From NCBI GenBank assembly GCA_965198115.1, contig OZ240241.1:3872001-3936000 (forward strand): 64,000 bases of DNA. The letters run 5' to 3'. Below, piece by piece: positions 30,414-63,280 of this stretch. Made by a program: the position numbers and the translations under genes. The notes beneath the pieces were generated by a model that saw nothing but the letters and a program-made list of their open reading frames with translations, was not told the DNA's origin and searched no databases. Numbering within the stretch: the first letter of the stretch is position 1; every line of letters starts with the position of its first letter. The DNA is from Candidatus Latescibacterota bacterium (GTDB lineage Bacteria; Latescibacterota; UBA2968).

Positions 30414-30489
30414 AGTCCGCTTCAGCGGACGGAGTTTATCCTGAGCGCAGTCGAAGGGCTGCAGTAGCGTGAGACTTCAGTCCCACGCG
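30414..30489. repeat. Palindrome doublet with a 24-nt micro-element in the spacer (30434-30457)
   Basis: AGTCCGCTTCAGCGGAC..[GTTTATCCTGAGCGCAGTCGAAGG]..TAGCGTGAGACTTCAGTCCCACGCG. Confidence 0.75.
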
Positions 30490-30503
30490 CAGGGGAGGAA
30501 CCC

Positions 30504-31271
30504 TATGAGACCGGGATTCATGAGTTCCGTTTGTCCAAAACAGACGCTCTCCGAGCTAATCGGGTCCGCGAAAAAATATGGCTACGAGGGTATCGAGTTC
30601 CGCGTGGAGTGGGATCACAAGCACGGGATCGAGCTCTCCTCGTCGGAAGATGACATGGCCTCCGCTCAGGGAATGCTCGAGGACAGCGGCATCCAGGCCA
30701 CGTGCATCGCGACCGGCGTGCAACTCAACTCCACCGATGCGGCCGAGCACGAGAAGGAACGCGAATCGTTGAAACGATACATCGAGCTCGCACAAGGCGT
30801 GGGTGCTAGCCACCTGCGAGTCTTCGGGGATCCGGTTCCGAGGATGAGGCCAATCGGGATAAGGCACTGGGGCTTGCGGCGGAATCGTGTGCGGCGGTCG
30901 ATGATCACGCCGGCCAGCACAACGCGAAAGTGCTGATCGAGACACACACCAACATGCGTGCGGATTGGGCGAAACGGATCGTGGATGATTCCGGCGCGAG
31001 TAATGTGGGCGTTCTGTGGCACATCGGTCATCACATACGTCACGGTCAGTCCGTCGATGAGGCGTACGGCCACCTCAAGGGATATGTCGACCATATGCAC
31101 TTCAGCGCCCGCGAGGGAAGCCAGGTTACGGACGATGACAACAAGCGGACGGTCGATCTCCTTGCACCCGACGACTATTCAGGGTTCTTCTCCGTAGAGG
31201 TGATTGACCCGGACGATTCAGAAGCTGTTCTCGCACAACACATGGAGAAGTTCAAGACCTTCAGTCAGTGA
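30504..31271 (+). CDS. Sugar-phosphate isomerase/epimerase, TIM barrel (frameshift near 30840)
   Basis: YGYEGIEFR, LRVFG, LIETH and FSVEVI motifs. Confidence 0.8.
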
Positions 31272-31276
31272 TATGA

Positions 31277-31392
31277 ACCGCTCACCCTGAGTAGCGATCT
31301 AGTGGTAGCCGATCGTAGCGAAGCCACGGGAGTCAAACGAAGATTCGCATATCGAAGAGCCTGCCCCGAGCGGAGTCGAGAGGGCGAGCGGT
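31277..31392 (+). repeat. Variable-core hairpin repeat, copy C, with a micro-element in its right arm
   Basis: ACCGCTCACCCTGAGTA-N56-TATCGAAG[AGCCTGCCCCGAGCGGAGTCGAGAG]GGCGAGCGGT. Confidence 0.8.
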
Positions 31393-31408
31393 CGGAGTAA
31401 GCGACAAC

Positions 31409-32233
31409 ATGTCAGATTCGATCCCATACAAGTACGCGCTTTGCAGCGAAACCTTCGAAGATCGATCCCTGGCCGAATCGGCGCAGCTTACGGCAAAGAT
31501 CGGATACACTGGTCTCGAGTTGGCACCTTACACATTGTGTGACCTCGTGACGGATCTCGATTCGTCCGACCGGGCACGGATTCGTAAAGATGTAGAGGAC
31601 GCTGGGATAGAAGTGGCCGGACTGCATTGGCTGCTCGCGAACACCCCGTTCAGGCTGAACACGCCGAACGAAGATGAAAGAAGAGCTGCGGGGGACTATT
31701 TGGTCGAGCTGGTCGATTTCTGCGCGGATGTGGGAGGTGACACCATGGTGTTCGGGTCACCCGCCCAACGTGATCCCGCCGATGGCTTTGATCCGGCAGA
31801 AGCGTGGGAGTGGATGATCGAGTGCATGCGAAAGTGCGGAGAACGCGCGCACGACCGGGGTGTGATATTCTGCATCGAACCGCTCGGAACACCCTTTGTC
31901 ACCTGGATCGACGATGCCATGAGACTGGCCGAGGAAGTCGGTCAGCCTGGATTCGCGATGATGGTTGACTGCAAAGCCATGGCGCAGGACGACCGTTGGC
32001 CGGTGAGCGATCAGATTCGTCACGCATACGGATCCTTCCACCACGTCCACGTGAATGACCCGAACAGGCTGGGACCGGGAATGGGAGATCTCGACTTCAG
32101 CCCGATTCTGAAAGCGCTCGCAGAATTGGATTACGCCGGCTGGGTGTCGGTCGAGGCCTTCGACTTCGAGTCCGGCCGCGAAAACGTCGCCCGAACCAGC
32201 CTCGAAAACATGCAACGCATCGTGGAGAGTTGA
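31409..32233 (+). CDS. Sugar-phosphate isomerase/ketose 3-epimerase family
   Basis: GYTGLELAP, FGSPAQR, IEPL, HVHVNDPN..GPG.G and WVSVEAF motifs. Confidence 0.9.
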   Translation: MSDSIPYKYALCSETFEDRSLAESAQLTAKIGYTGLELAPYTLCDLVTDLDSSDRARIRKDVEDAGIEVAGLHWLLANTPFRLNTPNEDERRAAGDYLVELVDFCADVGGDTMVFGSPAQRDPADGFDPAEAWEWMIECMRKCGERAHDRGVIFCIEPLGTPFVTWIDDAMRLAEEVGQPGFAMMVDCKAMAQDDRWPVSDQIRHAYGSFHHVHVNDPNRLGPGMGDLDFSPILKALAELDYAGWVSVEAFDFESGRENVARTSLENMQRIVES

Positions 32234-32245
32234 ACTGTGCGTTCG

Positions 32246-32440
32246 ACCGCTCATCCTGAGTAGCGACCTAAGAAAGGGCGTCTACTATCAGATATCGTGA
32301 AAGCGTTGGACTCGCATATCGAAGGATGAGAGGTCGCAGCAGCGAAAGTGAGGGCCGTTCGTCCTTCGATACGGGGACAGTAGGTTTGCACCTTGGCAGA
32401 ATCCAATGATGGTACGATACCCCTACTCAGGATGAACGGC
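32246..32440. repeat. Variable-core hairpin repeats D (+, 32246-32334) and E (-, 32354-32440)
   Basis: ACCGCTCATCCTGAGTA-N54-TATCGAAGGATGAGAGGT and GCCGTTCGTCCTTCGATA-N52-TACTCAGGATGAACGGC. Confidence 0.8.
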
Positions 32441-32495
32441 AGCGACGGTCGTCATTCGCATTCTCCCACGATCTGAAACCCGATAGGACCATTGC

Positions 32496-33563
32496 GTGCC
32501 CATTAGAGTCGGCATCCTCGGCGCGGTATCCAGCTACTCTCTCCATTACAGCGAAACGATCCGCGACATGGAAGGGGTCGAGCTCGCCGGGCTCGTGCAT
32601 TTCGATCGGGATCCGAAGTACATTCGAGATTCGCTGAGTCTGCACTGGCTGGCGAAATTTCCGAAGACGATCGAGGAGATGGCGGAGAGATTCAGGACGG
32701 AGCTCTACGAGGAAGCGGATGAGCTGTATGAAAAGGGAAAACCGGATGCGGTCTGCTTGTGTATGGAGGACTATCATCGGCCGCACTATGCCGAATGGGG
32801 GATCGAGCGGGGTCTGCACGTCTTTATGCCCAAGCCTTTTGCCCGGTCCATCGACGAGGCTTTGAGTGCGTTCGATACGTCGAATGAAAAGGGACTGATC
32901 ACGGTGGGCAGCTTGCCCACGAGGTTCCGCTCACCTTCGGTGACCGCGAGTGGTGTGATCGACGAGGGGCGCATCGGGCGTCCGATCATGGGTCATTTTT
33001 CTATCACCCATCATCTGACGCTGGGAGGATGGAAGAGTGATTTCGAAATGGCGGCAGGACCCGAGTTGGAGACCGGGTTTTACGTGTTCGATCAGATGCT
33101 GATGCTGATGAAGGACGAACCGCGTGACATCGTCGGTTTCGGCGAGAATCACGACCATCGGGGGATCCCGTGCATTGACAATGGCAAGTGCGTGGTTCGC
33201 TGCAAGAACGGAGCACTCTCGACGATCGATCTGATCATGTCTACACACCACGGGTTTCCGCGTGGACGGGCGAGTCACGTGATTGGAGATGAAGGGGCCC
33301 TCGTCGTGGATCAGGACGACCAGGGGGCTTTCGTAGAAATCCATACGAGCGACGGTGTCGAACGGATTGACTGCGAGAGTTGGGATCCGTTCGAGCGTGA
33401 GCTGGGGACGTGGATCGGTCTGATCCGTGATGGGGGCGATCCATCGGAGTGGCAGGAGGAAGGGTTGCGTACGCTCAACTTGATTCTGGCCTACAAGGAA
33501 GCGCACGAATCGGGGAATCGTCTTGTCCTTGCCGACGACGATGAAGAAGAGGAGGATGAATAG
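32496..33563 (+). CDS. Gfo/Idh/MocA-family oxidoreductase (divergent)
   Basis: IRVGILG, GLHVFMPKPFA (EKP replaced by PKP) and G.IGRP motifs. Confidence 0.82.
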   Translation: MPIRVGILGAVSSYSLHYSETIRDMEGVELAGLVHFDRDPKYIRDSLSLHWLAKFPKTIEEMAERFRTELYEEADELYEKGKPDAVCLCMEDYHRPHYAEWGIERGLHVFMPKPFARSIDEALSAFDTSNEKGLITVGSLPTRFRSPSVTASGVIDEGRIGRPIMGHFSITHHLTLGGWKSDFEMAAGPELETGFYVFDQMLMLMKDEPRDIVGFGENHDHRGIPCIDNGKCVVRCKNGALSTIDLIMSTHHGFPRGRASHVIGDEGALVVDQDDQGAFVEIHTSDGVERIDCESWDPFERELGTWIGLIRDGGDPSEWQEEGLRTLNLILAYKEAHESGNRLVLADDDEEEEDE

Positions 33564-33565
33564 CC

Positions 33566-34366
33566 GTGGATTGGCACGGTCACACGTTCGCCTACAAGCT
33601 TCGGGTCGACGTCGAGCACGTGGAATCGCAGCGCTATATCGGGGACTACCGGTTGACCCGCGTCTCCGTGACGAATCTGCTCGATCTCCTGGCAGAGATC
33701 GATGTTCACGTTTCCTTCTGTGTACTGGGTATTACGGCCGAGCTGTTTCCGAATCTGATCCTGGATATCGTGGATGCCGGTCACGAGGTTTATGGACACG
33801 GGATGTATCACGAGCCGGCGTTCGAGGGACGCCCGTTCCGAGAGCAGCGCCACGAGATGATTCGCATGCGCGACAGCATCGAATCGGCCTGTGGCGTGAA
33901 GGTTCGAGGGATCGGTTGCCCGCATCACGGGTTGGCGGATGAAAATACCCTTCGCGCGGCGGCAGAGGCAGGGATCGAATACGTGGAATCGAAGATCCGA
34001 GGAGAGGGAGCGCCGGTTCCCGTTCCCGTGACCCGGAAGATCGACGGAACGGACGGAACAGTGCTCGTTCCCGGTGGGGGTGGACGAGGCGCCTCGGACT
34101 ATACCGATCGACGCCCGGACTGGGCGTTCAAGCACGAAGAAGCCTTCAGCCCGACGGGGGCGAGGGAAAAGTGGATGGGCGACATCGACTGGGCCAAACA
34201 GAATAACACCATCACCGGCCTGGTTATTCACCCCTGGATGCTGATGATCAACGCCGGCGAGGTCCAGGTCGTGAAAGACCTGCTCCGGCACGCGAAAAAA
34301 GAGGGCTCTTGGTTCGCCACTGTAGACGGCCTCATCGATCTGGCCGACTCGAGCGCGAAGCCCTAG
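33566..34366 (+). CDS. Polysaccharide deacetylase (NodB-type)
   Basis: VDVE, GHEVYGHGMYHE and IHPW motifs. Confidence 0.82.
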   Translation: MDWHGHTFAYKLRVDVEHVESQRYIGDYRLTRVSVTNLLDLLAEIDVHVSFCVLGITAELFPNLILDIVDAGHEVYGHGMYHEPAFEGRPFREQRHEMIRMRDSIESACGVKVRGIGCPHHGLADENTLRAAAEAGIEYVESKIRGEGAPVPVPVTRKIDGTDGTVLVPGGGGRGASDYTDRRPDWAFKHEEAFSPTGAREKWMGDIDWAKQNNTITGLVIHPWMLMINAGEVQVVKDLLRHAKKEGSWFATVDGLIDLADSSAKP

Positions 34367-34512
34367 CCGGCCCGTCATCTCGAACCCGTGTTGCGCCCGT
34401 GGCTCCATTGACCGGGTGAGAGATCTCTACGAACAAGGTCATCGCCCGAGCGATATGGGCGAAGCCGTCTTATCCGCCGACCGCCCACTACCGACAGCCG
34501 ACGAGGTTCCCC

Positions 34513-35002
34513 ATGGACAGACGATGCCTGAAATACTGTCTCACGCCCGCCGAACGAAGGAAGTTCGACAAGAACGGATATCTGATCGTGGAAGACGCGC
34601 TGCCGAAGGCACGCGTCCGTTCCTTGCTCCAGGCGACCGAACGCGTGGATGTCAAGACACGCAAGGCGGAAAAGATCGAACCCCACCAGCGTGTGCATAC
34701 GCGTGATTTCCTGGGAGAAGATCAGGCGTTCATCGACTTGATTGCCTATCCCAGGCTATTGCCCAAGGTGTGGGGGATCCTGGGCTGGAACATCAACATT
34801 TTTACGGTTATGGCTACCGCTGGTTGCAGGCGCGTGGGCCGTGTGACGTGTCGAAGTTTTGGAGGAGACTCGATCCGATCGAGCGCCAGCTCTCCGCAAC
34901 CCGCCATCGGATATTCACGGCTGGACGTCTCCGAAGGATGAAGACGTGCCGCTGAAGGGCTGGATCGAGAAGAATGTGAAGAATGGAATGGTCGGCCCGT
35001 GA
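34513..35002 (+). pseudogene. PhyH-family dioxygenase with the catalytic core deleted
   Basis: N-terminus FDKNGYLIVEDAL...KVWGILGWNI is joined directly to C-terminal FYGYGYRWL...LDPIERQL...PKDEDVPL. Confidence 0.78.
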
Positions 35003-35763
35003 GTGGGAAGCTGACGGGGAAGGTTGCACTCGTGACCGGTGCCGGTCGAGGTCTCGGACGGGCTTATGCGCTGCATCTGGCAAGGCTCGGGGCCGACGTG
35101 GGCGTCAACGACCTCAGTCTGAGGGCCCACGAGGAGTATGATGAGAAGATCGGAGCCGAATCGGTTCCGGCCGAGATCGAAGCGATGGGTGTACGAAGCA
35201 AGGGTTACGAATCGGATGTGACCGATCGCGAACAGGTCGACGGGATGGTCGCCGACATCGCCGAGAGGTTCGGACGGCTGGACATCCTCGTGAACAATGC
35301 GGGCGGCGCGCTCTTCGGTCGGCACGATTTCAAGCCGATGTTCGACCTGAACTTCCACGGCACCGTCCATTGCTGCGAGGCCTCGGCTGAGGTGATGAAG
35401 CGACAGAAGTCGGGTAAGATCGTGAACGTCGCAAGCCAGGCGGGGATGCTCGCGAGTCAGGGTCATTCCTACGCCACGGCCAAGGCAGCTGTGATTCATT
35501 ACACGAGATGTCTCGCACAGGATCTGGGTCCCCACAACATCCACGTGAATTGCATCGCCCCCGGCTTTATCCTCAGTTCACGCGCGATCGCCGGTGGCAG
35601 AGACGAGGGTGAAACGAAAGAACGATTGGTATCGCAGATTGCCCTGGGTCGTCTGGGAATGCCCGAGGACTGTGCTAAAGTGGTCGAGTTTCTTGTGACC
35701 GACCTGTCGGATTACGTCACGGGTCAGACGATCCCCGTGTGCGGCGGCTTTGTGAAGTTTTAA
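34999..35763 (+). CDS. SDR-family oxidoreductase (FabG-like)
   Basis: TGAGRGLG, NNAG, YATAK and VNCIAPG motifs. Confidence 0.93.
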   Translation: MSGKLTGKVALVTGAGRGLGRAYALHLARLGADVGVNDLSLRAHEEYDEKIGAESVPAEIEAMGVRSKGYESDVTDREQVDGMVADIAERFGRLDILVNNAGGALFGRHDFKPMFDLNFHGTVHCCEASAEVMKRQKSGKIVNVASQAGMLASQGHSYATAKAAVIHYTRCLAQDLGPHNIHVNCIAPGFILSSRAIAGGRDEGETKERLVSQIALGRLGMPEDCAKVVEFLVTDLSDYVTGQTIPVCGGFVKF

Positions 35764-35785
35764 GGGCTACGCAAACACTTGGTGG

Positions 35786-35968
35786 CGGGCTTCTGCCCGT
35801 CCTCCACAAACACGACGCGCTTGTCCCCGTGCTCTGCACGGGGACCTGTTCTTCCTCGGGGCGAGGGCGATTCGTCCGGTAGCGAGTGGAGCTATGTTGC
35901 CCCCGTGCAGAGCACGGGGGCGAGCGACTACTCAGCCGAATACAAAAGAGGCCGGGCAGAGCCCGACC
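35786..35968. repeat. Two inverted composite REP units downstream of RAYT
   Basis: GGGCTTCTGCCC + GTCCCCGTGCTCTGCACGGGGAC (35786-35845) and the inverse GCCCCCGTGCAGAGCACGGGGGC + GGGCAGAGCCC (35899-35968). Confidence 0.82.
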
Positions 35969-35977
35969 TCTTTGTTG

Positions 35978-36513
35978 TTATAGCAAAATTGGGGAAACCC
36001 GCGGGAGTTTCTTGTTCCCACGAAGCGCGGATAGACTTGAGTAGGGCCAGTCTGCAGCTTTCCTACAAGTCCCTTTCTGACCGGGTTGTCGTGAACGTAT
36101 TCGATCTTCTGAATCAATACAGCATCAGAATACAACACCTGAGGATGGTAACCGGGCTGCCAGACGCGGTGGCGATGTGATTTCTTCTGTTCTCGGCAAT
36201 TAGCTCTGAATTTCTCCAGGTAAAATTGGGCTTTCCTTGTTTTCAGATCATTGACGATCTGGCGTGCGGTATAGGACAACAGACGTCGCATCGTGTTGGA
36301 GAGAACATCCCCGCTCCCCACGACATGGAAGTGGTCTTCCATGATAACGTATGCGTGCAAGCGAAGATCACCACGATCAGCAAGAAAATTAAGTGAACCG
36401 AGTAACGTTTCTGCACAGGTTCCGAATCGGAAGACTGGTAGCCATTCCACGATGGACGAGGTCATAAGGTGCGGGTACCTGTGACTTTCTATTCGGTATG
36501 GATCGCGTACCAT
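35978..36513 (-). CDS. REP-associated tyrosine transposase (RAYT, HUH Y1); frameshift near 36060
   Basis: HAYVIMEDHFH, WQPGYH and IEYVHDNPVRKGLV motifs; the shifted frame continues ADWPYSS...ILL*; flanked by palindromes on both sides. Confidence 0.88.
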
Positions 36514-36566
36514 ACCGCCGAGTATAGCCACGATCGAAATCGAGAACCAGGAGAGAGGATTTTGCT

Positions 36567-36632
36567 ACGGGCTCCCGCCCGTCCAGATTCACCAATCGCG
36601 CCACGCTCGTCCCCGTGCTCCGCACGGGGACC
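36567..36632. repeat. Composite REP unit upstream of RAYT
   Basis: ACGGGCTCCCGCCCGT + CTCGTCCCCGTGCTCCGCACGGGGAC. Confidence 0.82.
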
Positions 36633-36652
36633 CTGTGCGTCTATCTCAATCT

Positions 36653-37768
36653 TCAATGTCGCACGCTCCCATCCGCCCAGAAACTCCCCGTTACTTCCCG
36701 ATCTTTGAACGGTAGCTCCGTCAACACATCCTCGTTGATTTCCACGCCGATTCCAGGGCGATCCGCGATTTCCCGATAGCCGTTTCGCACCTTGAAAGGC
36801 GTGTCGACGATCGCGCGTTGTGCCTCACTGTGGGCGTTCGTCTCCTTGACGTAGTAGTTTGGGATGGCGGCTGCCAGTTGAGTGAAAACAGCATTGTTCA
36901 CTGGGCTGCCCATGAGGTGAGGGAAGATCTGAACGAACGCCGGCTCTGCGATGGCGGCGATCTTCTTGACCTGTGTGAACCCACCGGCCACGGATACATC
37001 CGGTCGCAGGAAGGCTGCGATTTTCTTGTCGACAAGCTCCTTGAACTGAAAGATGTTGTAGCTTCGTTCGCCGAGCGCCATGGGGATGTCTATATGTTTG
37101 GCGATGTACTCGTGAGCCTCCACGCTCTCAGGTGGGAGAGGATCTTCGAAGTATTTGAGCTTGAAGGGTTTAAGCTCCGCCGCGAGTGTGATGGCTTCGT
37201 CCGGCGTCAGGTTGCGGTGAATCTCGAGTCCGAGGTCGATGCCATCCCCGATGGCCTCACGAACGGTGGCGACCATCTCGACGGCGGTCGAAATGATCTC
37301 GGTGGAATCTCGAGACTCGAAACCTCCAAAGAAGGGCGTCATCCGTAGGGACGTGAACCCCTGGCTCACACGTTCTCTGGCGGAGTCCACTCGTTCTTCA
37401 TAGGTCTCACCGCGAACATTCTCGAACACACGTACGCGATCTCGACATTTCCCGCCCAGCAGCTGGTAGACGGGCAGCCCAACGGACTTGCCCAGGATGT
37501 CCCAGAGCGCGACGTCGATGGCACTGAGTGCGGCGCTGATGACGCCCCCCGTGAAGTGGGCGTGTCGGGTGACGACCTGGTGGTGATGCTCGATCAGACG
37601 AGGATCTTTCCCTACGAAGTAGGACTTGAGATCCTCGATCGTCTGCGCCGTCGGTCGATGGTGCATCCACAGGCCCGCTTCGCCATTACCGACGAGATCG
37701 TTGTCGGTGTAGACGCGAACGAGGCAGTACTGATCGACGAGGAAGGGCTTGATGTCCGTGATCTTCAT
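36653..37768 (-). CDS. Mandelate racemase/galactonate dehydratase-like enolase-superfamily enzyme
   Basis: SAIDVALWDILGK, LLGGKCRDRV, EIH, FEDP and LGER motifs. Confidence 0.92.
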   Translation of the reverse strand: MKITDIKPFLVDQYCLVRVYTDNDLVGNGEAGLWMHHRPTAQTIEDLKSYFVGKDPRLIEHHHQVVTRHAHFTGGVISAALSAIDVALWDILGKSVGLPVYQLLGGKCRDRVRVFENVRGETYEERVDSARERVSQGFTSLRMTPFFGGFESRDSTEIISTAVEMVATVREAIGDGIDLGLEIHRNLTPDEAITLAAELKPFKLKYFEDPLPPESVEAHEYIAKHIDIPMALGERSYNIFQFKELVDKKIAAFLRPDVSVAGGFTQVKKIAAIAEPAFVQIFPHLMGSPVNNAVFTQLAAAIPNYYVKETNAHSEAQRAIVDTPFKVRNGYREIADRPGIGVEINEDVLTELPFKDREVTGSFWADGSVRH

Positions 37769-37808
37769 GGCCGTTTCGATTCAAAAACGATGAGAGGGAA
37801 AGACGAGC

Positions 37809-38645
37809 ATGAGCAGTCTACATAACAGAGTGGCGATTGTCACGGGTGGTGCGCTGGGCATCGGTGGCGCGATGTCGCGAAGACTGGCGGGCGTAGGCGC
37901 CAGGGTCCTGGTCGCAGATTATGTGATGGAGGCGGCGGAGGAGAATGTCGCTCGCATTACGGAGGCCGGAGGTCAGGCGAGAGCGATGCACGTAGACGTG
38001 TCGAAGGCGGATGACGTCGAACGCATGGTCGAAGAGGCAGTTAACGCCTTCGGTGGATTGCATATCCTCGTTAACAACGCGTGGGGGAGCAAGGAGCCGG
38101 ATGGAACGGCGGAGACGGTTACCGATAGCGCGTGGGAATACGGGATGGATACAATGGTCCGTGCTCACTTCAGAGCTGTTCGTCACGCATTGCCCCACAT
38201 GCGTGAAGCGGGTGGAGGCGCTGTCGTCAACATCGCATCGGTCCACGGATTCCTCGTTGCGGAACGACGATTGGTTTACGAGACGGCAAAGGCCGCTGTC
38301 ATCGGGATGACACGGCAGATGGCGTGTGATTTCGGTCCGGACGGCGTGCGCGTCAACGCGATTTGCCCTGGCCACATCGTGACCGAGAAAGGCGAGGCGA
38401 ATTGGGCGAAGAATCCATCGTTGCACAAGCTGTTTGTTGAACAGTATCCCATACGCCGAACGGGCGTTCCCGATGACATCGCGAATGCGATCCGGTTTTT
38501 GGTGTCTGATGAAGCATCGTTCATTACGGGTCACACGCTCGTTGTCGATGGTGGCCTGACGATTCAACTTCAGGAGAACCTGGGTGTTGCGCAGGCCATT
38601 TACCAGCGTGACCATCCCGACACGGACTTCGGGCGCTGGGGATAG
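37809..38645 (+). CDS. SDR-family oxidoreductase
   Basis: TGGALGIG, NNA, YETAK and VNAICPG motifs. Confidence 0.93.
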   Translation: MSSLHNRVAIVTGGALGIGGAMSRRLAGVGARVLVADYVMEAAEENVARITEAGGQARAMHVDVSKADDVERMVEEAVNAFGGLHILVNNAWGSKEPDGTAETVTDSAWEYGMDTMVRAHFRAVRHALPHMREAGGGAVVNIASVHGFLVAERRLVYETAKAAVIGMTRQMACDFGPDGVRVNAICPGHIVTEKGEANWAKNPSLHKLFVEQYPIRRTGVPDDIANAIRFLVSDEASFITGHTLVVDGGLTIQLQENLGVAQAIYQRDHPDTDFGRWG

Positions 38646-38719
38646 TGCGAAGCTGCAGGGAAGAAGTGAGAAGCCAGAAGGAATCCGTTCTCAGTCGGAA
38701 ATGACTCGAAAGGCTACCA

Positions 38720-40095
38720 ATGCAGCCGAATGTTGTCTGGATTTATGGAGAGGATCTCTACCCCGATCTGGCGTGCTACGGGACACCCGTCGTGCAGACG
38801 CCGAACCTCGACCGGTTCGCTTCGGAGGGAACGCTTTTTTCAAATGCGTTCGTGACCTGTCCAGTTTGTTCACCCAGCCGGTCGGCCATCATCACGGGTC
38901 GATACCAGACAAGCTTTGGTGCACACAACCATCGCAGCAAAAGAGACGCGCCTCTGCCTGGTGGCATCGAATTGGCTACGGATCTATTCCGTCAGGCCGG
39001 GTACTTCACGTGTAACAGCAGCGGTCCGCCCGATCATCGACCCGGAAAAACGGACTTCAATTTCCTCCGCGAGGATCCGTTCGACGGTGTGTTGTGGAAC
39101 GAGCGGGAAGAAGGCCAGCCGTTTTACGCGCAGTTCAACATCACGGACACGCACCGTGACTTCACTCGGGATCCCGAGAACCCGATCGATCCATCAGCCG
39201 TCGAGTTGCCACCTTACTATCCGGGTCATCCACTGGTAAGGAGAGACTGGGCGAACTGGCTGGAGAGCATCCAGGTTTTCGATCGCAAGGTGGGCGAAGT
39301 GCTCGGGATGCTCGAGAGGGATGGCCTGGTCGAGAACACGATCGTGTTCATCATCAGCGATCACGGGCGAGCCCACATCCGTGACAAGCAGTTTCTCTAC
39401 GATGGCGGGATTCGCGTGCCCTGCATCGTTCGATGGCCAACCACATTGGTGCTGGCGTGGTGAAGGACGATCTGGTGAGTGGGGTCGATTTCCTGACCAC
39501 GTCGCTTTCCCTGGCCGGATTGGACATTCCCGAGGAACTCGAAGGTCAGGTATTTACAGGCCCCCAGGCGGACCCACGCAATGCGGTCATTGCCGCCCGC
39601 GACCGATGCGATGGGACGGTCGATCGGATTCGATGCGTGAGAACGAAACAGCACAAATACATCAAGAACTATTGCCCTGATCGACCATATATGCAGTTCA
39701 ACGGCTACAAAATGCACCAGTATCCGCTGTGGACCCTTGCCCCCATCCTGAAAGCCCGCGGTGAGTTGACTGACGCGCAAAAGCGATTCCTCGAGCCGTG
39801 CCGTCCGGCCGAAGAGCTCTACGATCTCGAGGCTGATCCCCACGAGATCAACAACCTGGCCAACGTCGATGCGCACGCCACGACACTGACAGCACTCCGA
39901 AATCGTCTGGACGACTGGGAGGTGCTTCACGGCGGTCGTGGTGCAACACCCGAAGATCCACCCGTGCTGGCGGAGGAGGCAAGAAAGATGCAGGACAATT
40001 TCAAACGGAGAATGGGAGCGCGCGGATTGCCGGCCGACATTGCGCCGGAAGACTATCTCGCGTGGTGGGAACGTGAACTCTTAGGGAAGGGGTAA
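38720..40095 (+). CDS. Sulfatase/sulfamidase-like (frameshift near 39437)
   Basis: QPNVVW, CSPSRSA, GKTDFNF, SDHG and EELYDL..DP.E motifs. Confidence 0.86.
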
Positions 40096-40756
40096 ATGGT
40101 GGAGGGGATTCAGGGGCGACCCGTTCGGGTCGGGTTCTACGGGTCGGGCAACATCGCGAAGAACACACACATACCGATCGTGTCTGCGCTGGAAAACGTC
40201 GACATCGTGGGGCTATGCGATGTCGACGCGACTGTCTTGGAAGAAGCCGGGGCAGTGGCTGGAGTCGAGGAGGTCCACCTCTACACCGATGCGATGGAGA
40301 TGCTCGAGCGTGAGGAGCTCGATGTGCTGTTTTCGTGTGTCCCGGCATTCGTCCGAGACGATTCACACGTCGAAGCAGTGGCCGCCTCGAAGGGCATCCA
40401 TTTGTTCAGCGAGAAGCCTCAGGCGGTGGATATCGAAACTGCCAGGCGGATCGACGGCGCGATTCGAGATGCGGGTGTGCTCAGCACCGTCGGGTTCCGC
40501 GAACGCTATCGCCCGTTGTTCTCGGAGGTTCGAGATTTCCTGTCGGATAAGGAAATCACACACGCGCAGGTGACGATGCCCAGGCTACAGCACGGCGAAA
40601 GGCCCTGGTCGGTGGATGAGGAGGTGAGTGGCGGGTTTCTTCTGGAATGGGGATGCCACGCCCTGGACTACACACGATTCATGACGGGCCAGGATGTTTC
40701 ACACGTCCAGGCTTTTATCTCGAAGCCTGAGGGACACGACCAGTCGGTGTCTAACT

Positions 40757-41393
40757 AAACCTTGGTAAGCCCCCGGCTCTGCCGGGGAGACTCCCAGAGT
40801 TTGACAGTTCCAGAAATATGTAAGAGCCTCCCTTGCCGTGGACCGCTCAAAGCACACGGAAGGAAGGCTCTCTAATGAACAACGTAAGGAGTCTACGTCA
40901 CACGGTATGGGAGTGCAAGTATGACGTTGTTTGGGTTCGGAAGTATCGTAGAAAAGTGTTGTATGGTGAAATTCGTCGCTATCTGGGCGAGGTGATTCGG
41001 GATCTGGCCGCACAGAAGGAATGCCGTGTGGAAGAGGGTCACCTGCGATCCGACCATGTGCACATGCTGATTTCGATCCCGCCGAAGCACTCAGTAGCTC
41101 AGACGGTAGGGTTCATCAAAGGAAAGAGTGCGATTCACATTGCTCGGAACTATCTGGGACGCAGGTCGAACTTCACCGGGCAGCATTTCTGGGCAAGAGG
41201 CTACTGGGTCTCCACCGTTGGCAAGGATGAACAGACGGTTCGGGAGTATATCCAGAACCAGGAGCGGGAGGACCGGCGTCTCGACCAGCTCAACATTTTC
41301 AGGTAATCGCCACCTTTAGGTGGCGCTTGGTTTCCAACCGCTTTGAGCGGTTCACAAGTTTTCAAGCCTCCGGCTTTGCCGGAGGTCATGGCT
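40757..41393 (+). mobile_element. IS200/IS605-family element (tnpA only)
   Basis: Subterminal hairpins CCCCGGCTCTGCCGGGG and CCTCCGGCTTTGCCGGAGG; inserted after TAACT; no TSD. Confidence 0.9.
40875..41306 (+). CDS. tnpA: IS200-type Y1 transposase
   Basis: DHVHMLISIPPK, GFIKGKS, FWARGY and EYIQNQE motifs. Confidence 0.94.
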   Translation: MNNVRSLRHTVWECKYDVVWVRKYRRKVLYGEIRRYLGEVIRDLAAQKECRVEEGHLRSDHVHMLISIPPKHSVAQTVGFIKGKSAIHIARNYLGRRSNFTGQHFWARGYWVSTVGKDEQTVREYIQNQEREDRRLDQLNIFR

Positions 41394-41786
41394 CTGTGAA
41401 CTTTCGATTCGAGAACGGCGGAACGATGCACCTCCTGTTCGTGACGCTCCTTGCCGATGACGTTCGCGCGCCCGGCCGGAGGGTAGTCCCTTTGTTCTCC
41501 TTCGCGTTCGTGGGTGGCTGGGTGGATGTCTATCGCGAAGACGGCAAGGTCTGGTCCTGCGAGGTCAACGGGGAGCTCGCTGGAACGGAGACGTTCGATC
41601 CGTGGGCCGAACACGATCGCGTGTTCATTGAGGCCGTTCGATCGGGAGATCCTACGGCAATAAGGAACGACTATCGCGACGGCATGCAGACGATCGGCCC
41701 GGTTCTGGCGGCCATTCAATCAGGGCGTGATTCCGGGCAGACGATCGAGATGCGTGGATTTATGAATTAGCTGGACGCCGGGGATG

Positions 41787-41898
41787 CGTGGGGCTAAAGC
41801 CCCACGCTAGAGCAGCGAAGCCGGCTGAAGCCGGCTAGTGACAATAGCCCGCTTTAGCGGGCTTCGGATTCATAGCGTGGGGACTCATCCCCACGCGC
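41787..41898. repeat. Cluster of four GCTTCAGC/GCTAAAGC-centred palindromes (inverted doublets)
   Basis: GCGTGGGGCTAAAGCCCCACGC, AGCCGGCTGAAGCCGGCT, AGCCCGCTTTAGCGGGCT and GCGTGGGGACTCATCCCCACGC. Confidence 0.82.
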
Positions 41899-42070
41899 GA
41901 TGCGCACGCCCATCGCCAGATCCCCCAGATGCCGGAAACCCTTGTGGTCTCCGGCATTTGATTTTGCCTCCCTCACCCGAGTTCAACCATATTGGTTGCC
42001 CCTTCGCCCGGGTGGTAGACCGTGGCGACCCCAGACCATCGCCCGATGGGCATCATTCGAGGTCAGAGAC

Positions 42071-42397
42071 GTGTTACTACAGATCTATTTCAAGGTCAGC
42101 GAAGAAAACGGGCAGGCGTTCGAGGATATGTTCATGGACGTCTACGTTCCAGCCATGCAGGTGCAAGAGGGCTATCTGGGATCACGGCTTTTAAGACTGT
42201 TTCCCGATGAGATCCATAAGGAGATCAATGCCCGCGAGACAGAGTTCAACTATCAGATGAATCTGGTTTTCGACACGGAGGAAAACCGTCGCAAGTGGGC
42301 GGCAAGCGACGAGCATCAGGTGGCATTCCCGAAGGCAAAGGAACTGGCGGAAGATGTGCAATGGCGTGGCTATGACGTAGCGGGTGAGGATGGTTGA
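42071..42397 (+). CDS. Small ABM/Dabb-like protein
   Basis: GTG 42071; VYVPAMQVQEGYLGSRLL...FDTEENRRKWAASDEHQ resembles the ABM-type fold. Confidence 0.6.
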   Translation: MLLQIYFKVSEENGQAFEDMFMDVYVPAMQVQEGYLGSRLLRLFPDEIHKEINARETEFNYQMNLVFDTEENRRKWAASDEHQVAFPKAKELAEDVQWRGYDVAGEDG

Positions 42398-42398
42398 G

Positions 42399-43148
42399 AT
42401 GGCCCGCGCTTACGCCCTGATCGGCGATCGTTATCACAACTCGCACTACATCCGGACGGCGCTCAAACGAACACTGGTCCAAGGCGTCGGGCTGACGATC
42501 GACTTTACGGACGACTACGAGGCGCTTGGCTCGGAAGCCCTCGATGGGTATGACTTGCTCATCATTTTCCGTGACGGGATGATCTGGCCAACCGGCTATG
42601 GGGAAACCGAGTTCTTCTCTCGAACCGGAGCGCTTCCTCTGACCAGCGATCCTCCGGTGCCCGAGGAAGAGGCATCGTCACGGCCCTGGATGACTGACGA
42701 ACAGGGTGCCGCGATCAAGACGTTCGTCGAGTCCGGTGGGGCGGCGCTGCTCTGTCACAACGTGACGTACATCGCGACGGACAACGCAGACTTCCGATCC
42801 GTCCTGGGCGCCGCGACTGAGGGACATCCGCCGGTCAGACCGTATCGCGTGGAGATTACGAACAAAGATCATCCCATCACGCGAGGTGCGAGCGATTTCG
42901 TGGTGACCGATGAGCAGCATTTCATGACGTATGACGGCGATCCTGACAATGTGCTGATGCGCAGCGTGAACGACGACGGCGAGGCGTTCAAGGACTTAGG
43001 TACGACGTGCGAAGCCGGATGGGCGTTCGACTATGGGAAAGGGCGGGTGTGTTACCTTGCGCCGGGTCACCTGATTCCGGTGCTGTGGAACCCGGAATTC
43101 GTGAAGATTCAGCAGAACGCGGTGCGCTGGCTTCTCCGTGAAATCTAA
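42399..43148 (+). CDS. ThuA-like (class I GATase-fold) protein
   Basis: GDRYH, FVESGG, HPITRG..DF...DEQH and YGKGRVCYLAPGH motifs. Confidence 0.85.
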   Translation: MARAYALIGDRYHNSHYIRTALKRTLVQGVGLTIDFTDDYEALGSEALDGYDLLIIFRDGMIWPTGYGETEFFSRTGALPLTSDPPVPEEEASSRPWMTDEQGAAIKTFVESGGAALLCHNVTYIATDNADFRSVLGAATEGHPPVRPYRVEITNKDHPITRGASDFVVTDEQHFMTYDGDPDNVLMRSVNDDGEAFKDLGTTCEAGWAFDYGKGRVCYLAPGHLIPVLWNPEFVKIQQNAVRWLLREI

Positions 43149-43272
43149 TTGCGTTTAGGCCTAGTCGAAGAAAACATAGCAGGGTCACTTCGAGCGGAGT
43201 CGAGAAGTCCCTCATAGACAGAATTCCAAACGGCTTGATCATTTGTACCACCTAGGTGAGTAGGAGAGTCCT

Positions 43273-44421: not shown

Positions 44422-44428
44422 GGATGAC

Positions 44429-45196: not shown

Positions 45197-45200
45197 AGGG

Positions 45201-46139: not shown

Positions 46140-46170
46140 CTGTCGAACTTTTTGACGAAAATCGAAGGAG

Positions 46171-47043: not shown

Positions 47044-47055
47044 ACTGGGAGATGC

Positions 47056-48392: not shown

Positions 48393-48394
48393 TC

Positions 48395-49380: not shown

Positions 49381-49397
49381 GACACTGCAACACGCAC

Positions 49398-49454
49398 ACA
49401 CCGTCACACTGAGCAGAAGCCTGCCCCGAACGGATGTGAGGGGAAGTGTCGGTC
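49398..49454 (+). repeat. Hairpin repeat with a degenerate micro-element in its loop
   Basis: ACACCGTCACACTGAGC..GCCTGCCCCGAACGGATGTGAGGG..GAAGTGTCGGTC; compare 20632. Confidence 0.7.
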
Positions 49455-49507
49455 ATCGGGTGGTGAGGTCTAACATCGGTCTTCAGCCATCTGCATCGAA
49501 ACAACTC

Positions 49508-50542
49508 CTACTGCCCGTGGGCTAGTATCCGCTCTCTCACACTCTTCACCCATCCTTCCTCTTCGTCAGCATCCAGCTTCCCATCCCCATCCTGATCCCA
49601 CCGCTCCAGTACGCGTTTCCAACCATTGCTCGTGAGGAGGTTTCCTCGAGGCAGGATTCCGCGGTATCTGAGGACGCGCGTGGAGTTCGGTTGACCCTCG
49701 ATGGCCTCCCGCATCTCCCGACGACTCCACTCCGGGATGGGCACACCATCGTGTTCGAGCAACGTCTCGAACCAGAGTTGGGCCATGATTTCGATGCCGA
49801 TCGAGCCGGGATGCCGGCCGTCCAGGTCGAAGGCTTTTGGGAAGTGCACTCGTGTCGGCTCCCACACGTCGGGCCCTTCGTTGACGTTCGATGGATTTCG
49901 ATCCAGATAGGCCTCCAGGGCCAGGCGCTCGTGACCGATCTCCGGCTCCATTGGATGTTTGTAGATATGCATCGCGATGAAAACCTTGTCGGCTCCGTCG
50001 GTTAGGAGGTGATCAGCGTAGGATACGATGACGTCTGCACCGAACTGGATGCGCTCGGCATCGTCTGGACTGCGAATCCCCTCGGTTTGTTCCCCATATA
50101 CCCACTGTAAGGATTGCTGGGCCAAAACGACTGCGGGTCGCTCGCCCTTCGAGGCGAGGGCGGGCTGAATTCGCTCGATCCACGCATTCTTACGCTATCT
50201 GGACTCGATGTCCATCCACTTGGCGATGGGTGTACCGCCGCGGAGAGCCAGTTTGACCTCGAGCGGGTGGTTCTCACCCAAAAAGCGATCGAGTTTGCGT
50301 TTAAACAGATGCGGCCAATGATTGGATGTCGAATACCCGTTGACGACGATCAATCGGGGTTCGCCCGAGAAAATTCTGAGAGGTGTAACGGTCTCTGTAG
50401 CAGAGGTAGAAGCCGTTGCGAGCAGAAGCGGAATCAGTTTCCTCGGTAATGTCAGGAGTCTCCCGAATGAGACACAACAGGGTCTGCACACCGATGCCTT
50501 CTTGCCTTCCGTGCTCTTTGCGGATATCGTGTTTGGGACCAT
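49508..50542 (-). CDS. Hypothetical exported protein with C-terminal EF-hand-like motif (frameshift near 50200)
   Basis: ORFs 50195-50542 and 49508-50125 appear contiguous; DQDGDGKLDADE motif. The start is uncertain. Confidence 0.55.
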
Positions 50543-54996: not shown

Positions 54997-54998
54997 TC

Positions 54999-56997: not shown

Positions 56998-57041
56998 AGC
57001 CTTTCAATTTCCTGATTCCATAATTTCCCAATGGAGCTCCA

Positions 57042-58622: not shown

Positions 58623-58634
58623 CGGATAGAGTGG

Positions 58635-59708: not shown

Positions 59709-60002
59709 GTTCGACCTTTGTTCGGTGAATGGCGTCGTCGAATCACAGGAAAAAGATAGGGAAAGGTCCCGTCCCGATACAAGAACCCGCAGCTCGATGC
59801 GAATCCCGTAATCGTCCCAGTCCACAAGGGAATTAGAAGGACCCCTAACACAAAATCCCATCGGTGCAATGAAAAGCGGGCCCGAACGTGTGCTCGAGCC
59901 GTAGAACAACTGCGATACCTATTTCACCTTTCTTTTTTCACTTGTCATAGGTCAATGGTCAATGCACCCGTTATGCGCGCAATGCCAAGTTCGCGGCCGG
60001 GA

Positions 60003-60136
60003 GGTATATCCTGAGCCCCTCGACGGAGCCTGTGCCGAGCGAAGTCGAGGTGCTCGGGATAAACTCCGTCGAAGGGCCGCTCCCACCGGCAACGGGGCGA
60101 GCCATCTGTGAAGCTTGCCCCGAGCGAACGCGAGGA
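60003..60136. repeat. Triple-nested micro-elements (60003-60076) plus a fourth copy (60113-60136)
   Basis: TATCCTGAGC[CCCTCGACGGA{GCCTGTGCCGAGCGAAGTCGAGGT}GCTCGGGATAAAC]TCCGTCGAAGGG. Confidence 0.8.
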
Positions 60137-60308
60137 GTCCACCCTCTACCGCCGACCGCCCACTTCCAAAGAGGCGAAGCCGCCTCTCCGTCCCCCGTCA
60201 ACCACCTGCCCGCCGTAGCGACGCAGTCACGAAGGTGGGTCAGCTGCATCACTCTCCGTATATTGCTCCGTCGTCCGGCCCTTCTACCAAACTCCGGAGA
60301 GCCACAGC

Positions 60309-61622
60309 TTGACTCGACTACCCGCACTATCGCAGAGCCCCCTCCTCCGCTACATCACCTTCCCCATCCTGTACGTCGCGCAGGGCCTCCCCTACGGTCT
60401 CGTCCTCGTCGCGCTGCCGGCCTGGCTGGCCAAACAGGGCCTCGGCACAGCCGAAATCGGCGGATTCACGGCCATCGTTGCGCTTCCCTGGAGCCTAAAG
60501 CTCATCGGCGGACCACTGATGGACCGCTTCTGCTATCTCCCGATGGGTCGGCGTCGGCCTTGGGTCGTGGGTGCCCAGATTGGCCTGTTCATCTCATTCT
60601 GCACCCTGGCCGCCGTGCCCGATCCCGCTTACAACCTCACTCTGCTGGCCGCAATCGGATTCGTCACGAACATGTGCGCCGCCTTCCAGGACGTCGCCGT
60701 CGACGGAATGGCCATCGACGTCGTCCCTGAAGATCAACGCGCGCGCGCGAACGGCTTCATGTTCGGTGGACAGGGATTGGGGATCGCATTCTCAACGGGC
60801 GTCGGGGGCACCGTGATGAGCAGCCACGGATTAGGCGCGGCCATCGCGCTCAACGCCTTGTTTCTCGCAGTCATCGTCCTCTTCCCGATTTGTCTGCGAG
60901 AACGGCCAGGCGAAAAGCTGCTCCCCTGGACCGAAGGCACCGCATCCCCTGAATCCATGGAGATGCAGCTCCACAGCTGGGGAGACATCTTCCGCAGCCT
61001 CTTTCGCGTGGTCGTGTTGCCCGCCAGCCTGATCGGGGGCGCACTCAACTTCCTCTACCGTGGAGGCGAGGGCATCACGTGGACGGTCATCCCGGTCCTG
61101 ACCATCCAGGAGTTGGGCTGGCAGGATGCCGACTATTCTCAGATCCAGGCTTATGCGGGTGTGGCTTCTAGCATCGTCGGCATGGTCGTCGGCGCAACCC
61201 TCGTCCACTGGTTGGGCGGTCTCAGATGCGTTCTGGGGACCGTCATCCTGATGATCGTCGTTCAGGCAGCAGCTGGCATTTTCACCGACCTCTGGTACGA
61301 TCCGACATACGTGACCGCCTATTTCTTCGCACTCAACATCCTCGGGATCGTCTTCGTCGTTTCGATCATCCCCGTCTTCATGACCATCTGCTGGAAGAAG
61401 GTTGCTGCGACACAGTTCTCTTTATACATGGCCCTCGCCAACCTCGGAACCTCAGCCGGCGCAGCCGTCACCGGCCCCATCGACGCGGTTCTCGAGTATA
61501 ACGAGATCTTCCTGGCCACCGCCGCCCTCGGTATCGTCCTGATCGTCCTGACAAAGATGGTCCGAATGGACCGCCACGCTGAGAGGTTGGAAGAGATCGA
61601 CGCTGAAACGGCTGCGGCGTAG
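60309..61622 (+). CDS. AmpG-like MFS transporter
   Basis: LYVAQGLP, LPWSLK...PLMDR, GRRRPW, QDVAVDG and ATQFSLYMAL.NLG motifs. Confidence 0.9.
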   Translation: MTRLPALSQSPLLRYITFPILYVAQGLPYGLVLVALPAWLAKQGLGTAEIGGFTAIVALPWSLKLIGGPLMDRFCYLPMGRRRPWVVGAQIGLFISFCTLAAVPDPAYNLTLLAAIGFVTNMCAAFQDVAVDGMAIDVVPEDQRARANGFMFGGQGLGIAFSTGVGGTVMSSHGLGAAIALNALFLAVIVLFPICLRERPGEKLLPWTEGTASPESMEMQLHSWGDIFRSLFRVVVLPASLIGGALNFLYRGGEGITWTVIPVLTIQELGWQDADYSQIQAYAGVASSIVGMVVGATLVHWLGGLRCVLGTVILMIVVQAAAGIFTDLWYDPTYVTAYFFALNILGIVFVVSIIPVFMTICWKKVAATQFSLYMALANLGTSAGAAVTGPIDAVLEYNEIFLATAALGIVLIVLTKMVRMDRHAERLEEIDAETAAA

Positions 61623-61638
61623 TGGCTGACCGCCATCG

Positions 61639-61719
61639 CCGGGCTCTGCCCGCGTTCAGATACTTCCGTACACACACTCGCCCCCGTCCCTTCGACTCCG
61701 CTCAGGACTGCACGGGGGC
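61639..61719. repeat. Composite RAYT-type REP unit carrying a micro-element
   Basis: CGGGCTCTGCCCG + CTCGCCCCCGT[CCCTTCGACTCCGCTCAGGA]CTGCACGGGGGC. Confidence 0.72.
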
Positions 61720-61757
61720 CGAATGACACGGACGATGAGTACTGTCATCCCGGTACG

Positions 61758-63131
61758 GAGCTATAACCAAAAGGTGTGGAAAAAGAGAAAGGGCGACCCT
61801 ACCCTTCCCGTGAGATAGTTGATTCACACAAAACCGGGTGAGAGGCCCGGTTGGGAAGGAGGATCGCCGTGAAGGAACATACGCATAGAGCCCCATTGAA
61901 GTCCATGCCGACGTGGGAGACGGTTGACGATTGGATCCGTGAAGAGATCCAGGGCCGGTTCCAGTTCATTCTGGAGGAGGAGGCGACCGCGTTCTTGGGC
62001 CGGTCGTGGTATGAGCGCCGAGCCGAGGTCGATAGCTCCACGGGCTACAGGAACGGCTACGGCAAGCCCCGGCGTCTCTCGACGAGCTGCGGAACGATCA
62101 AGGTCCGGCGTCCCCGGGTTCGTGGTCTGGAAGAGCGGTTTGAAAGCCGCATCCTCCCCCTGTTCGCCCGGAGAACCAGGGCCATTGGAGATCTGCTTCC
62201 CGACCTTTATCTCCACGGTCTCTCCCAGGGCGACTTCGAGTTGTCTTTGCGTGCGCTGCTCGGTGATGGCGCGCCGCTTTCGCCGACCTCGATCGCTCGT
62301 CTTCGAGGGAAGTGGGAGGTCGACTTCCAGGACTGGAAAGAAAGGCGTCTGGATAATCGCGAACTGGTCTACGCCTGGGCTGATGGCATCTACGTCAAAG
62401 CCGGGCTCGAGCGCGAGAAGGCGTGTCTGCTGGTCGTGATCGGCGCGATGAGCGACGGCAGCAAGGAGATCCTGGCGATAGAACCCGGTTATCGAGAGTC
62501 TACAGAATCCTGGCTCACGGTGCTACGGGATCTCCGGGATCGCGGGCTCGAACATCCTGTCCTGATCGCCGCGGACGGGAATATGGGCATCTGGGCGGCC
62601 GTTGATCAGGTCTGGCCAGAGAGCCGGCAACAACGGTGCTGGAACCACAAGATCCTCAACGTGCTCGACAAGGTCGCCAAGCGTGCACAGGCTGAAGCCC
62701 GCGCACTGCTCGTCCAGATCCCCTATGCCGGCACGAAAAAGGAGGCCGAGAAGCTCCGGAAACGCTTTGCCGCACGGTATCGCTCACAGTTCCCTGCCGC
62801 CGTGGAGACGCTCGAAAGAGACTGGGATCGGATGGTCACGTTCTACGACTTCCCGAAGGAACACTGGAAACACCTGAGAACCACGAACGTCGTCGAGAGC
62901 CCCTTTGCTTCCGTTCGGCTTCGCACAAACGCCGCCAGGCGATTCAAGAAAGTCAGGAACGCCACGACTCTCATCTGGCGTACGCTCAAGGTCGCAGAGA
63001 GCCGATTCAGGAAACTCACCGCGCCACACTTGCTACAACAAGTCTACGATCAGAAACACTCAACCGGACCGCAGGTCGAAGCCGGGAAGATGGCCGCCTG
63101 ATTTCTTTTACACACCTATTGACCTGAGCTC
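61758..63131 (+). mobile_element. IS256-family IS (type A), intact copy
   Basis: Same IRs as 7122-8494; 9-bp TSD CCCGGTACG (61749-57, 63132-40). Confidence 0.94.
61905..63101 (+). CDS. IS256-family transposase
   Basis: YRNGY, WADGIY, QRCWNHK and RTTNVVESPF motifs; the start could be 61869 or 61905. Confidence 0.93.
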   Translation: MPTWETVDDWIREEIQGRFQFILEEEATAFLGRSWYERRAEVDSSTGYRNGYGKPRRLSTSCGTIKVRRPRVRGLEERFESRILPLFARRTRAIGDLLPDLYLHGLSQGDFELSLRALLGDGAPLSPTSIARLRGKWEVDFQDWKERRLDNRELVYAWADGIYVKAGLEREKACLLVVIGAMSDGSKEILAIEPGYRESTESWLTVLRDLRDRGLEHPVLIAADGNMGIWAAVDQVWPESRQQRCWNHKILNVLDKVAKRAQAEARALLVQIPYAGTKKEAEKLRKRFAARYRSQFPAAVETLERDWDRMVTFYDFPKEHWKHLRTTNVVESPFASVRLRTNAARRFKKVRNATTLIWRTLKVAESRFRKLTAPHLLQQVYDQKHSTGPQVEAGKMAA

Positions 63132-63280
63132 CCCGGTACGCTTCTTAGCCGCCTGTCCTGAGCTTGTCGAAGGGGGATCCATTCTCGCCACAATCGCAGT
63201 TCGCTGGCGGCGCCAGACAAAAATGGACCCCGGCTCAACACACTGCCGGGGTGACATTGATTGTCGCGAGTGTGTAAGCG

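Follow-up and report, generated by a model that had tools for sequence, protein, structure and literature searches.

A mobile 24-nucleotide hairpin element in the short repeats of a Latescibacterota genome, and a possible route of spread through single-stranded DNA

The 64,000-nucleotide stretch analysed here (the window; positions 3,872,001-3,936,000 of the complete 8.4-Mb genome of a Candidatus Latescibacterota bacterium, assembly GCA_965198115.1, contig OZ240241.1) harbours a non-coding element of about 24 nt, composed of a 6-nt tail followed by an 18-nt hairpin. Filled and empty versions of its host sites, found within this genome (G000) as well as between it and that of a congener (G001), identify the element as a mobile micro-element, a conclusion we hold with high confidence and one that bears out the proposal of an earlier reading made from the letters of the window (the sequence-only reading). 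With regard to the mechanism, our preferred reading, to which we assign a probability of roughly 45%, is that the unit spreads as short single-stranded DNA (ssDNA) that becomes incorporated into the lagging strand during fork passage.

Results

A weight matrix trained on tailed copies, applied with a cut-off score of 19, returned 197 matches above 19 in the genome and none above 16 in a Markov control. Following removal of six tail-less matches, 191 tailed copies remained, spread over 95 flank clusters, and a single identical 24-mer was present in up to eight different clusters. The 16-nt core occurs 159 times in the genome but was found neither in an order-5 Markov genome nor when read backwards, and chance is thereby excluded. 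The stem shows clear compensatory changes: one pair is T-A in 123, C-G in 53, T-G in two and C-A in none of 178 copies, and the outer pair is C-G in 122, A-T in 43, G-T in nine and of another kind in four. Between stem and loop the fold, as read from the sequence, is predicted to contain tandem G-A pairs and a GNA triloop closed by C-G, a motif outside the standard folding parameters. According to the accessible text of PMC13037366, GNA mini-hairpins made of DNA are nuclease-resistant and greatly exceed their RNA counterparts in stability. Relatives that share its stem are also present: 42 copies of a tail-less form bearing a CGTC-type tag, and two cousin families, which number 53 and 35 copies.

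The evidence for mobility was obtained by seeking both flanks of each copy elsewhere in the genome, at a spacing of -4 to +11. Such an empty partner was found for 120 of the 197 copies, 111 of them at a net gain of +23 to +25 and 95 at +24, as compared to 16 of 1000 random intergenic excisions (1.6%) and 35 of 1000 mismatched flank pairs (3.5%). One host site carries 15 different element variants among its 16 copies. Moreover, 11 self-nested structures fit one pattern, and two of these are three-layered, including one in the window. Between genomes, a G000 transposase remnant, which we take to be IS91-like, contains a 6-bp stem whose loop of 4 nt corresponds to 28 nt in G001, in frame; in a second pair an intergenic repeat holds the element in G001 but not in G000, with other variants filling a tandem paralogue. 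Among 24 tailed loci fetched from relatives, one of which could not be parsed, two could be aligned with G000 through the site, which in both cases was empty in G000. It could be argued that the filled forms are instead fixed ancestral variants of each repeat family, as some of them have indeed spread as subfamilies. This is highly improbable in view of the 95 flank contexts, the identical 24-mers shared by several of them, the three-layer nests and the orthologous filled/empty pairs, one of which lies within a conserved reading frame; for the pairs cited the ancestral reading is refuted.

The junctions of the element differ markedly between its two ends. The 3' junction is sharp, with G as the next base in 86 of 101 clusters and A in 14, and the 5' junction is ragged. 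In the 30 clusters where the empty form has 3 nt at this position, the host nucleotides were kept in seven and exchanged in 23, mostly for GGA, so that the net gain stays +24; the seven host-retaining clusters represent pure insertions with one G duplicated. Net gains of +17, +21, +22, +23 and +25 were observed as well. Neither terminal inverted repeats nor a fixed tetranucleotide were found at the junctions. Non-canonical pairing of the incoming GGA with a template GNA was considered as a source of the exchange; it fits only 11 of the 23 replaced clusters and is not relied on here.

The target of the element is a short repeat, not a palindrome specifically. Its hosts comprise hairpin doublets, GTAG-type and RAYT repetitive extragenic palindromes (REPs), CGTC-type palindromes, heptamer arrays, the element's own family and non-palindromic direct repeats, the last presumably of the GxxExxY type, and the insertions fall in loops, arms and spacers alike. 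An empty partner was found for 106 of 181 intergenic copies, and a repeat of any kind was present at 436 of 1500 random intergenic sites, 330 of which fall in repeats resembling insertion sequences (ISs); the resulting odds ratio is 3.4, or 14 when IS-like repeats are left out, for copies that are not independent of each other. The sequence-only reading had proposed that hairpins as such are targeted. Single cases of loop replacement are clear, yet perfect stems 5-8 bp long and no further than 30 nt from a junction were not enriched relative to random intergenic DNA (p 0.12-0.71, one copy per cluster), a folding z-score below -2 was seen at 16% of junctions versus 11%, with a marginal energy shift (p=0.04), and direct repeats or heptamer tandem repeats make up many of the hosts; this part of the proposal is not upheld. 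As for enzymes belonging to the host families, other than RAYT and GIY-YIG, for which no dedicated test was made, two small genes were seen flanked, neither of them a nuclease.

Genome-wide, 16 of the 191 copies overlap predicted genes, several at gene termini and one possibly by chance, as judged from a simple gene model of our own (6957 genes, 80% coverage). The earlier statement that no copy lies inside a coding sequence is hence correct for the window but not for the genome, and the in-frame insertions of eight residues that it suggested looking for in proteins do exist. A histidine kinase carries an exact 8-residue insertion relative to its paralogue, with two others at +7, and an ATPase-like gene carries one relative to its G001 orthologue, within a heptamer repeat. 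Two of three coding insertions compared with relatives lie in variable loops with no clean junction. In a public locus (L113), eight residues are added within a motif that we presume to be UvrA-like. Histidine-kinase paralogues (e.g. 2,418,313-2,418,780 and 3,528,259-3,528,699) were also seen to have one ATPase-domain loop into which many different in-frame, repeat-like insertions of 5-35 residues have entered. The low number of genic copies, in genes that cover 80% of the genome, could suggest that insertion occurs nearly anywhere before a G and that the repeat bias reflects survival, insertions elsewhere being harmful, and amplification of filled hosts, the more so as filled composites reach 16 copies. 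Still, the odds ratios given above were obtained with intergenic copies only, the site with 15 variants in 16 copies is not accounted for, and several coding insertions also lie within heptamer or related repeats, making this reading very unlikely.

All five window sites named in the sequence-only reading are present. They had been taken as insertions into five unrelated palindrome families, a description that does not hold for two of the hosts, which are cousins of the element. At the first site, the 24-nt element (30434-30457, + strand) occupies the spacer of a hairpin doublet (30415-30486, +), directly 3' of its first hairpin. Excising 24 nt restores the spacer length as claimed, but the 3 nt left (30431-30433) are GGA and not the TTC, TTG or TTT of the empty hosts. 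Two empty doublets of this family lie at 29760-29805 and 41847-41894 (both +), and genome-wide it comprises eight filled and 12 empty members. At the second, the element (31359-31382, +; net +25 relative to the empties) is inserted in the right arm of a long-loop hairpin, hairpin C (31277-31392, +), as had been noted; its host, which has the outer stem in common with the element, is related to the element's own hairpin but has a long loop, and its family flanks a small GIY-YIG gene at genome position 214,165. Likewise, the variant with a different right arm at 49419-49442 (+; net +22) does sit in a hairpin loop, but the hairpin is a tail-less copy of the element itself (49400-49453), with its empty counterpart, the tail-less form, at 20634-20665 (+). 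The fourth site indeed lies in a RAYT-type REP (61680-61719; empty REP at 35899-35921), where a tail-less piece of 21 nt (61688-61708, -) replaces 4 nt of the loop, net +17. The fifth was correctly described as an insertion in a palindrome: a 23-nt form with a 2-nt loop (63151-63173, +) is purely inserted in the right arm of a CGTC-type palindrome, whose flank cluster contains six filled and 18 empty members.

A three-layer nest at 59991-60087 had been overlooked. Inside this REP, the outer layer (60004-60075, +) has its arms at 60004-60016 and 60068-60075, and its 3-nt loop is replaced by a 27-nt antisense copy (60017-60067, -; arms 60017-60024 and 60052-60067), the 3-nt loop of which is in turn replaced by GGA plus a 24-nt copy (60025-60051, +). 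Three further copies had been listed without an identifiable host. For that at 60113-60136 (+) a host was found, a composite REP/heptamer repeat, but this diverged copy and the strongly diverged one at 3952-3975 (+) are tailed variants below the score cut-off. The copy reported at 43188 is not an insert but a tail-less cousin hairpin (43182-43211, +), whose family has 53 genome copies and also flanks a broken GIY-YIG gene at genome position 510,446. Short-read contigs from the same sample span the site at 31359-31382 without difference and cover that at 30434-30457, where the contig breaks as a repeat would cause it to; the sites are therefore not assembly artefacts. The orthologous spacers of G001 and a further genome (G010) could not be aligned to the window sites, and the G001 spacers that were listed lack the host repeats and hence provide no clean empty allele.

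Several other features of the window were recorded in passing. A Mutator/IS256-family element at 61757-63131, flanked by what looks like an 8-bp target duplication (61749-61756 and 63132-63139), splits the left arm of the palindrome that hosts the fifth site. A gene for a xylose-isomerase-like TIM barrel (30469-31271) is broken into two open reading frames, and its match to G001 is continuous; at 34793-34800, within a gene, about 360 nt of G001 are absent. A head-to-head pair of long-loop hairpin C at 32240-32480 is not found in the same spacer of G001.

The taxonomic distribution of the element is wide and patchy. An exact 25-nt pattern matched at least 122 loci, and the titles of the 80 matches listed name at least ten phyla; 13 viral contigs were matched. 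Within the order, the tailed form was found in six of 53 genomes, the 25-nt pattern matching 90 times in G000 and 13 times in its congener. The 12-nt core gave four matches in two of five Nostocaceae plasmids and none when read backwards, two of the four having a similar tail and tandem-repeat surroundings; the 16-nt pattern gave no match in the first of these plasmids.

The orientation of the copies was analysed with respect to both replication and transcription. By established convention the G-rich strand is the leading strand, and it was so taken here, from a skew that has local reversals and with the origin not mapped. The hairpin strand lies on the inferred lagging (C-rich) strand in 121 of 191 copies (p=3e-4) and in 65 of 95 when one copy per cluster is counted, and the bias is retained in a stratified comparison that takes the empty hosts of each cluster as reference (p=0.008). 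Among the host repeats themselves, a strong one-strand replication bias was observed for the direct repeats of presumed GxxExxY type (9/54) and for long-loop hairpin C (9/35). Relative to neighbouring genes, 79 copies are in sense and 51 in antisense orientation, matching the empty hosts (130 to 89). The latter observation bears on a route in which RNA-templated copying, i.e. reverse transcription or RNA-mediated gene conversion, is primed by the nascent lagging strand. Primed reverse transcription, as in group II introns, likewise gives one sharp end, one ragged end and a lagging-strand bias. Nevertheless, gene orientation equals that of the empty hosts, the conserved fold is a DNA-type motif and no Rfam match was found in the window, rendering an RNA route decidedly unlikely.

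With respect to candidate enzymes, the sequence-only reading had pointed to an HUH enzyme such as RAYT. In this view a Y1 enzyme, either RAYT or an IS200/IS605-type TnpA, would perform strand transfer into single-stranded hairpins. The hairpin structure, the target duplication of at most one G, the RAYT REPs among the hosts and the 75 Y1 transposase matches in the genome are all in line with this suggestion. About 26 of the matches are near-identical IS200/IS605-type copies, one of them at window position ~40902-41261. The window RAYT gene itself (35932-36531, -; NF047646, 79.2 bits against a cut-off of 80) is bracketed by its own REPs, which serve as hosts, and it is cognate to the host REP rather than to the element. 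Close to its 3' end, just downstream of the region that encodes the catalytic tyrosine, the reading frame shifts, and the usual C-terminal motif continues in another frame. Copies of the element were found near two of 57 Y1 loci, versus 1.7 expected, and the element has neither a fixed junction tetranucleotide nor a GTAG tag, while its 5' junction is ragged with base exchange. Together with the lack of clear hairpin enrichment at targets, these results make Y1-mediated movement unlikely.

Among 27 small GIY-YIG genes from relatives, ten had the hairpin core within 700 nt; these ten fall in two clades, with up to nine copies and dense nesting. The 27 loci are the best-scoring ones after three long proteins were dropped, with genes called by PF01541 only, NCBIfam models being uninformative; as background, a bin of the same size holds the core 9.8% of the time, even in copy-rich G000. 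In G000, cousin hairpins lie on both sides of each of the two small GIY-YIG genes, one of which is split by an insertion sequence. At the broken gene (508,900-510,700; L147), one bracketing cousin carries a tailed copy in its loop, the one tailed copy beside a small GIY-YIG gene in this genome. Other 24-nt units with the same hairpin and different 6-nt tails are nested densely beside small GIY-YIG genes at three loci of relatives (L151, L153 and L156), the nests showing tandem duplications of the right arm. SsnA, a nuclease of this class, cuts ssDNA a few bases 5' of its hairpin, according to the accessible part of PMC11893778. Our own reading of the oligonucleotide table and the 20-nt product in the same part of that source places the cut 4 nt 5' of the SsnA tag, which falls near the 5' end of the element under one alignment of tail and tag.

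Discussion

In the mechanism that we favour, the hairpin would descend from the recognition repeats of small GIY-YIG nucleases, which its core flanks in relatives. Like SsnA, a GIY-YIG enzyme would cut a single strand on the 5' side of the stem, at a distance of 6-10 nt, yielding a ragged 5' end together with donor flank bases, and 3' trimming would halt at the nuclease-resistant hairpin, leaving a sharp 3' end. The ends of the fragment would then anneal to exposed lagging-strand template with the hairpin looped out, so that it acts as a false Okazaki primer and is subsequently ligated; flank bases would in this way replace host bases in register, with a net gain near 24. Repeats would be targeted since they expose or nick ssDNA and tolerate insertion, filled hosts being amplified later along with their family. 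The separate parts of this proposal are not equally secure: an ssDNA route at the replication fork appears fairly probable to us, and the assignment of a GIY-YIG nuclease as the releasing enzyme is tentative. That the two combine into a form of transposase-free mobility across bacteria, in which GIY-YIG frees a nuclease-proof mini-hairpin and the fork machinery installs it as a false Okazaki primer, we put forward as a doubtful extension.

A number of observations weigh against the proposal. The ten core-flanked GIY-YIG genes are kin and form about five independent groups, and the other 17 of 27 have no core nearby. In G000 one of the two small GIY-YIG genes is disrupted and the remaining one has a cousin hairpin beside it, with the nearest tailed copy 24 kb off, and genomes of genus g7 with an Ssn-like gene and flanking core do not carry the tailed form (0/15). 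The match between the SsnA cut and the 5' end of the element is alignment-dependent and post hoc. The published pattern for Ssn-related motifs (SRMs) matches none of 132 tailed and none of 79 other cores, although this pattern is narrow and also misses a clear NTS-like repeat at another locus (L157); furthermore, the tailed element lacks the 5' tag and the 3' motif needed by SsnA. The predicted loop closure, C-G with a G-T pair below, is unlike the canonical mini-hairpin sequence. As regards replication, the strand call derives from skew and not from a mapped origin, the bias is moderate, it drops to 87/148 (p=0.04) when two self-biased host types are set aside, and it is not seen in antisense self-nests (17/30). 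Finally, no intermediate was seen, nor any empty allele in read contigs over two 20-kb stretches, and current activity is consequently not established; the variants listed for window 29600-49550 and for a copy-rich 20 kb (three runs, two samples, one study) include no 24-nt deletion, in a contig-based comparison that drops rare variants.

The main rival is enzyme-free template switching, in which a polymerase stalled at a repeat would jump by microhomology to a filled copy, copy 24 nt plus flank and return in register. The equal-length exchange of flanks and the co-variation of tails with the host left flank are readily accommodated by this process, as are the partial arm duplications beside copies, the lagging-strand bias and the absence of a consistent enzyme among carriers. 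On the other hand, it leaves unexplained why this one hairpin, whose fold is conserved and whose 3' end is fixed, should act as donor across unrelated hosts in at least ten phyla, and why its presence is so patchy, in six of 53 genomes of the order. We consider it rather unlikely.

To our knowledge, how elements of fewer than 30 bases move has been open since a 2008 paper on the small dispersed repeats (SDRs) of cyanobacteria. For the present element the ends are defined, a junction rule and a strand bias have been described and a class of candidate enzymes can be named, which makes its mechanism testable. It also illustrates how proteins can acquire short peptides and how mosaic repeats arise between genes. 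If the unit does spread as an ssDNA fragment, it would rank among the smallest mobile elements on record. If, in addition, capture at the fork of a fragment released by GIY-YIG is true, this would amount to natural oligonucleotide recombineering by a 24-base selfish element, which would then be a hyperparasite living on the repeats of numerous unrelated nuclease and transposase systems and would steadily supply proteins with 8-residue insertions.

Comparison with known systems

A literature search that included exact motif strings found no description of the element, the supplementary consensus lists of PMC3733652 and PMC2700814 lying outside this search, and none is given in the accessible parts of PMC3184786, PMC2884548 and PMC2700814. 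The closest link on the enzyme side is to the Ssn GIY-YIG ssDNA nucleases and their NTS/Ssn-related motifs (Chenal et al. 2025, PMC11893778), for which the accessible text proposes mobility of the gene-bearing unit alone and does not describe nesting. The two have in common that a tail-less core with a CGTC-type tag flanks the small GIY-YIG genes of relatives and that Ssn cuts just 5' of a hairpin. In contrast, the mobile form has a different tail, no tag and an internally mismatched stem, and leaves the SRM pattern unmatched. Like the GTAG/CGTC REPs and REPINs, as far as the accessible parts of PMC3733652 and PMC3116915 describe them, the element is a small hairpin, some of these lying within other palindromes and in frame in genes; it differs from REPs and REPINs with RAYT in being a single unit with variable flanks, with no GTAG-type tag or doublet and no link to RAYT, and, going by the same two sources, a REP family resides in one host kind, whereas the element resides in many unrelated hosts and in itself. 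With Rickettsia palindromic elements, in the portion of PMC3733652 that covers them, it shares in-frame insertion into working genes, but it is much shorter, lies mostly in other repeats and nests in itself. Unlike a miniature inverted-repeat transposable element (MITE), the element is asymmetric and has no terminal inverted repeats, at most one G is duplicated and host bases are often exchanged. The features tested place it outside the SRM, REP/RAYT and MITE families.

The closest resemblance is to the small dispersed repeats SDR1-8 of Nostoc punctiforme and relatives, described by Elhai et al. in 2008 (Genome Res 18:1484), which are reported to be about 21-27 nt long with a compensated hairpin, nested in their own copies and in heptamer repeats, and confined to a cyanobacterial subgroup, an RNA route reportedly having been proposed for their spread. 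As in these SDRs, the element spans 23-25 nt net, or 27 nt with the exchanged flank, its fold is shown by compensatory stem changes, it nests in itself and uses heptamer-repeat hosts, and its core is present in Nostocaceae plasmids. Its occurrence in at least ten phyla, in contrast, exceeds the range reported for the SDRs, and equal-length flank exchange, strand bias and a GIY-YIG link are not known to us from the 2008 work. SDR5, according to the accessible parts of PMC13756078 and PMC4390886, is 21 nt long and inserted precisely in HIP1. Kinship with the SDR elements is probable, and the element may itself represent a named SDR family, in which case the gain would be its range across phyla and the mechanistic clues rather than its existence.

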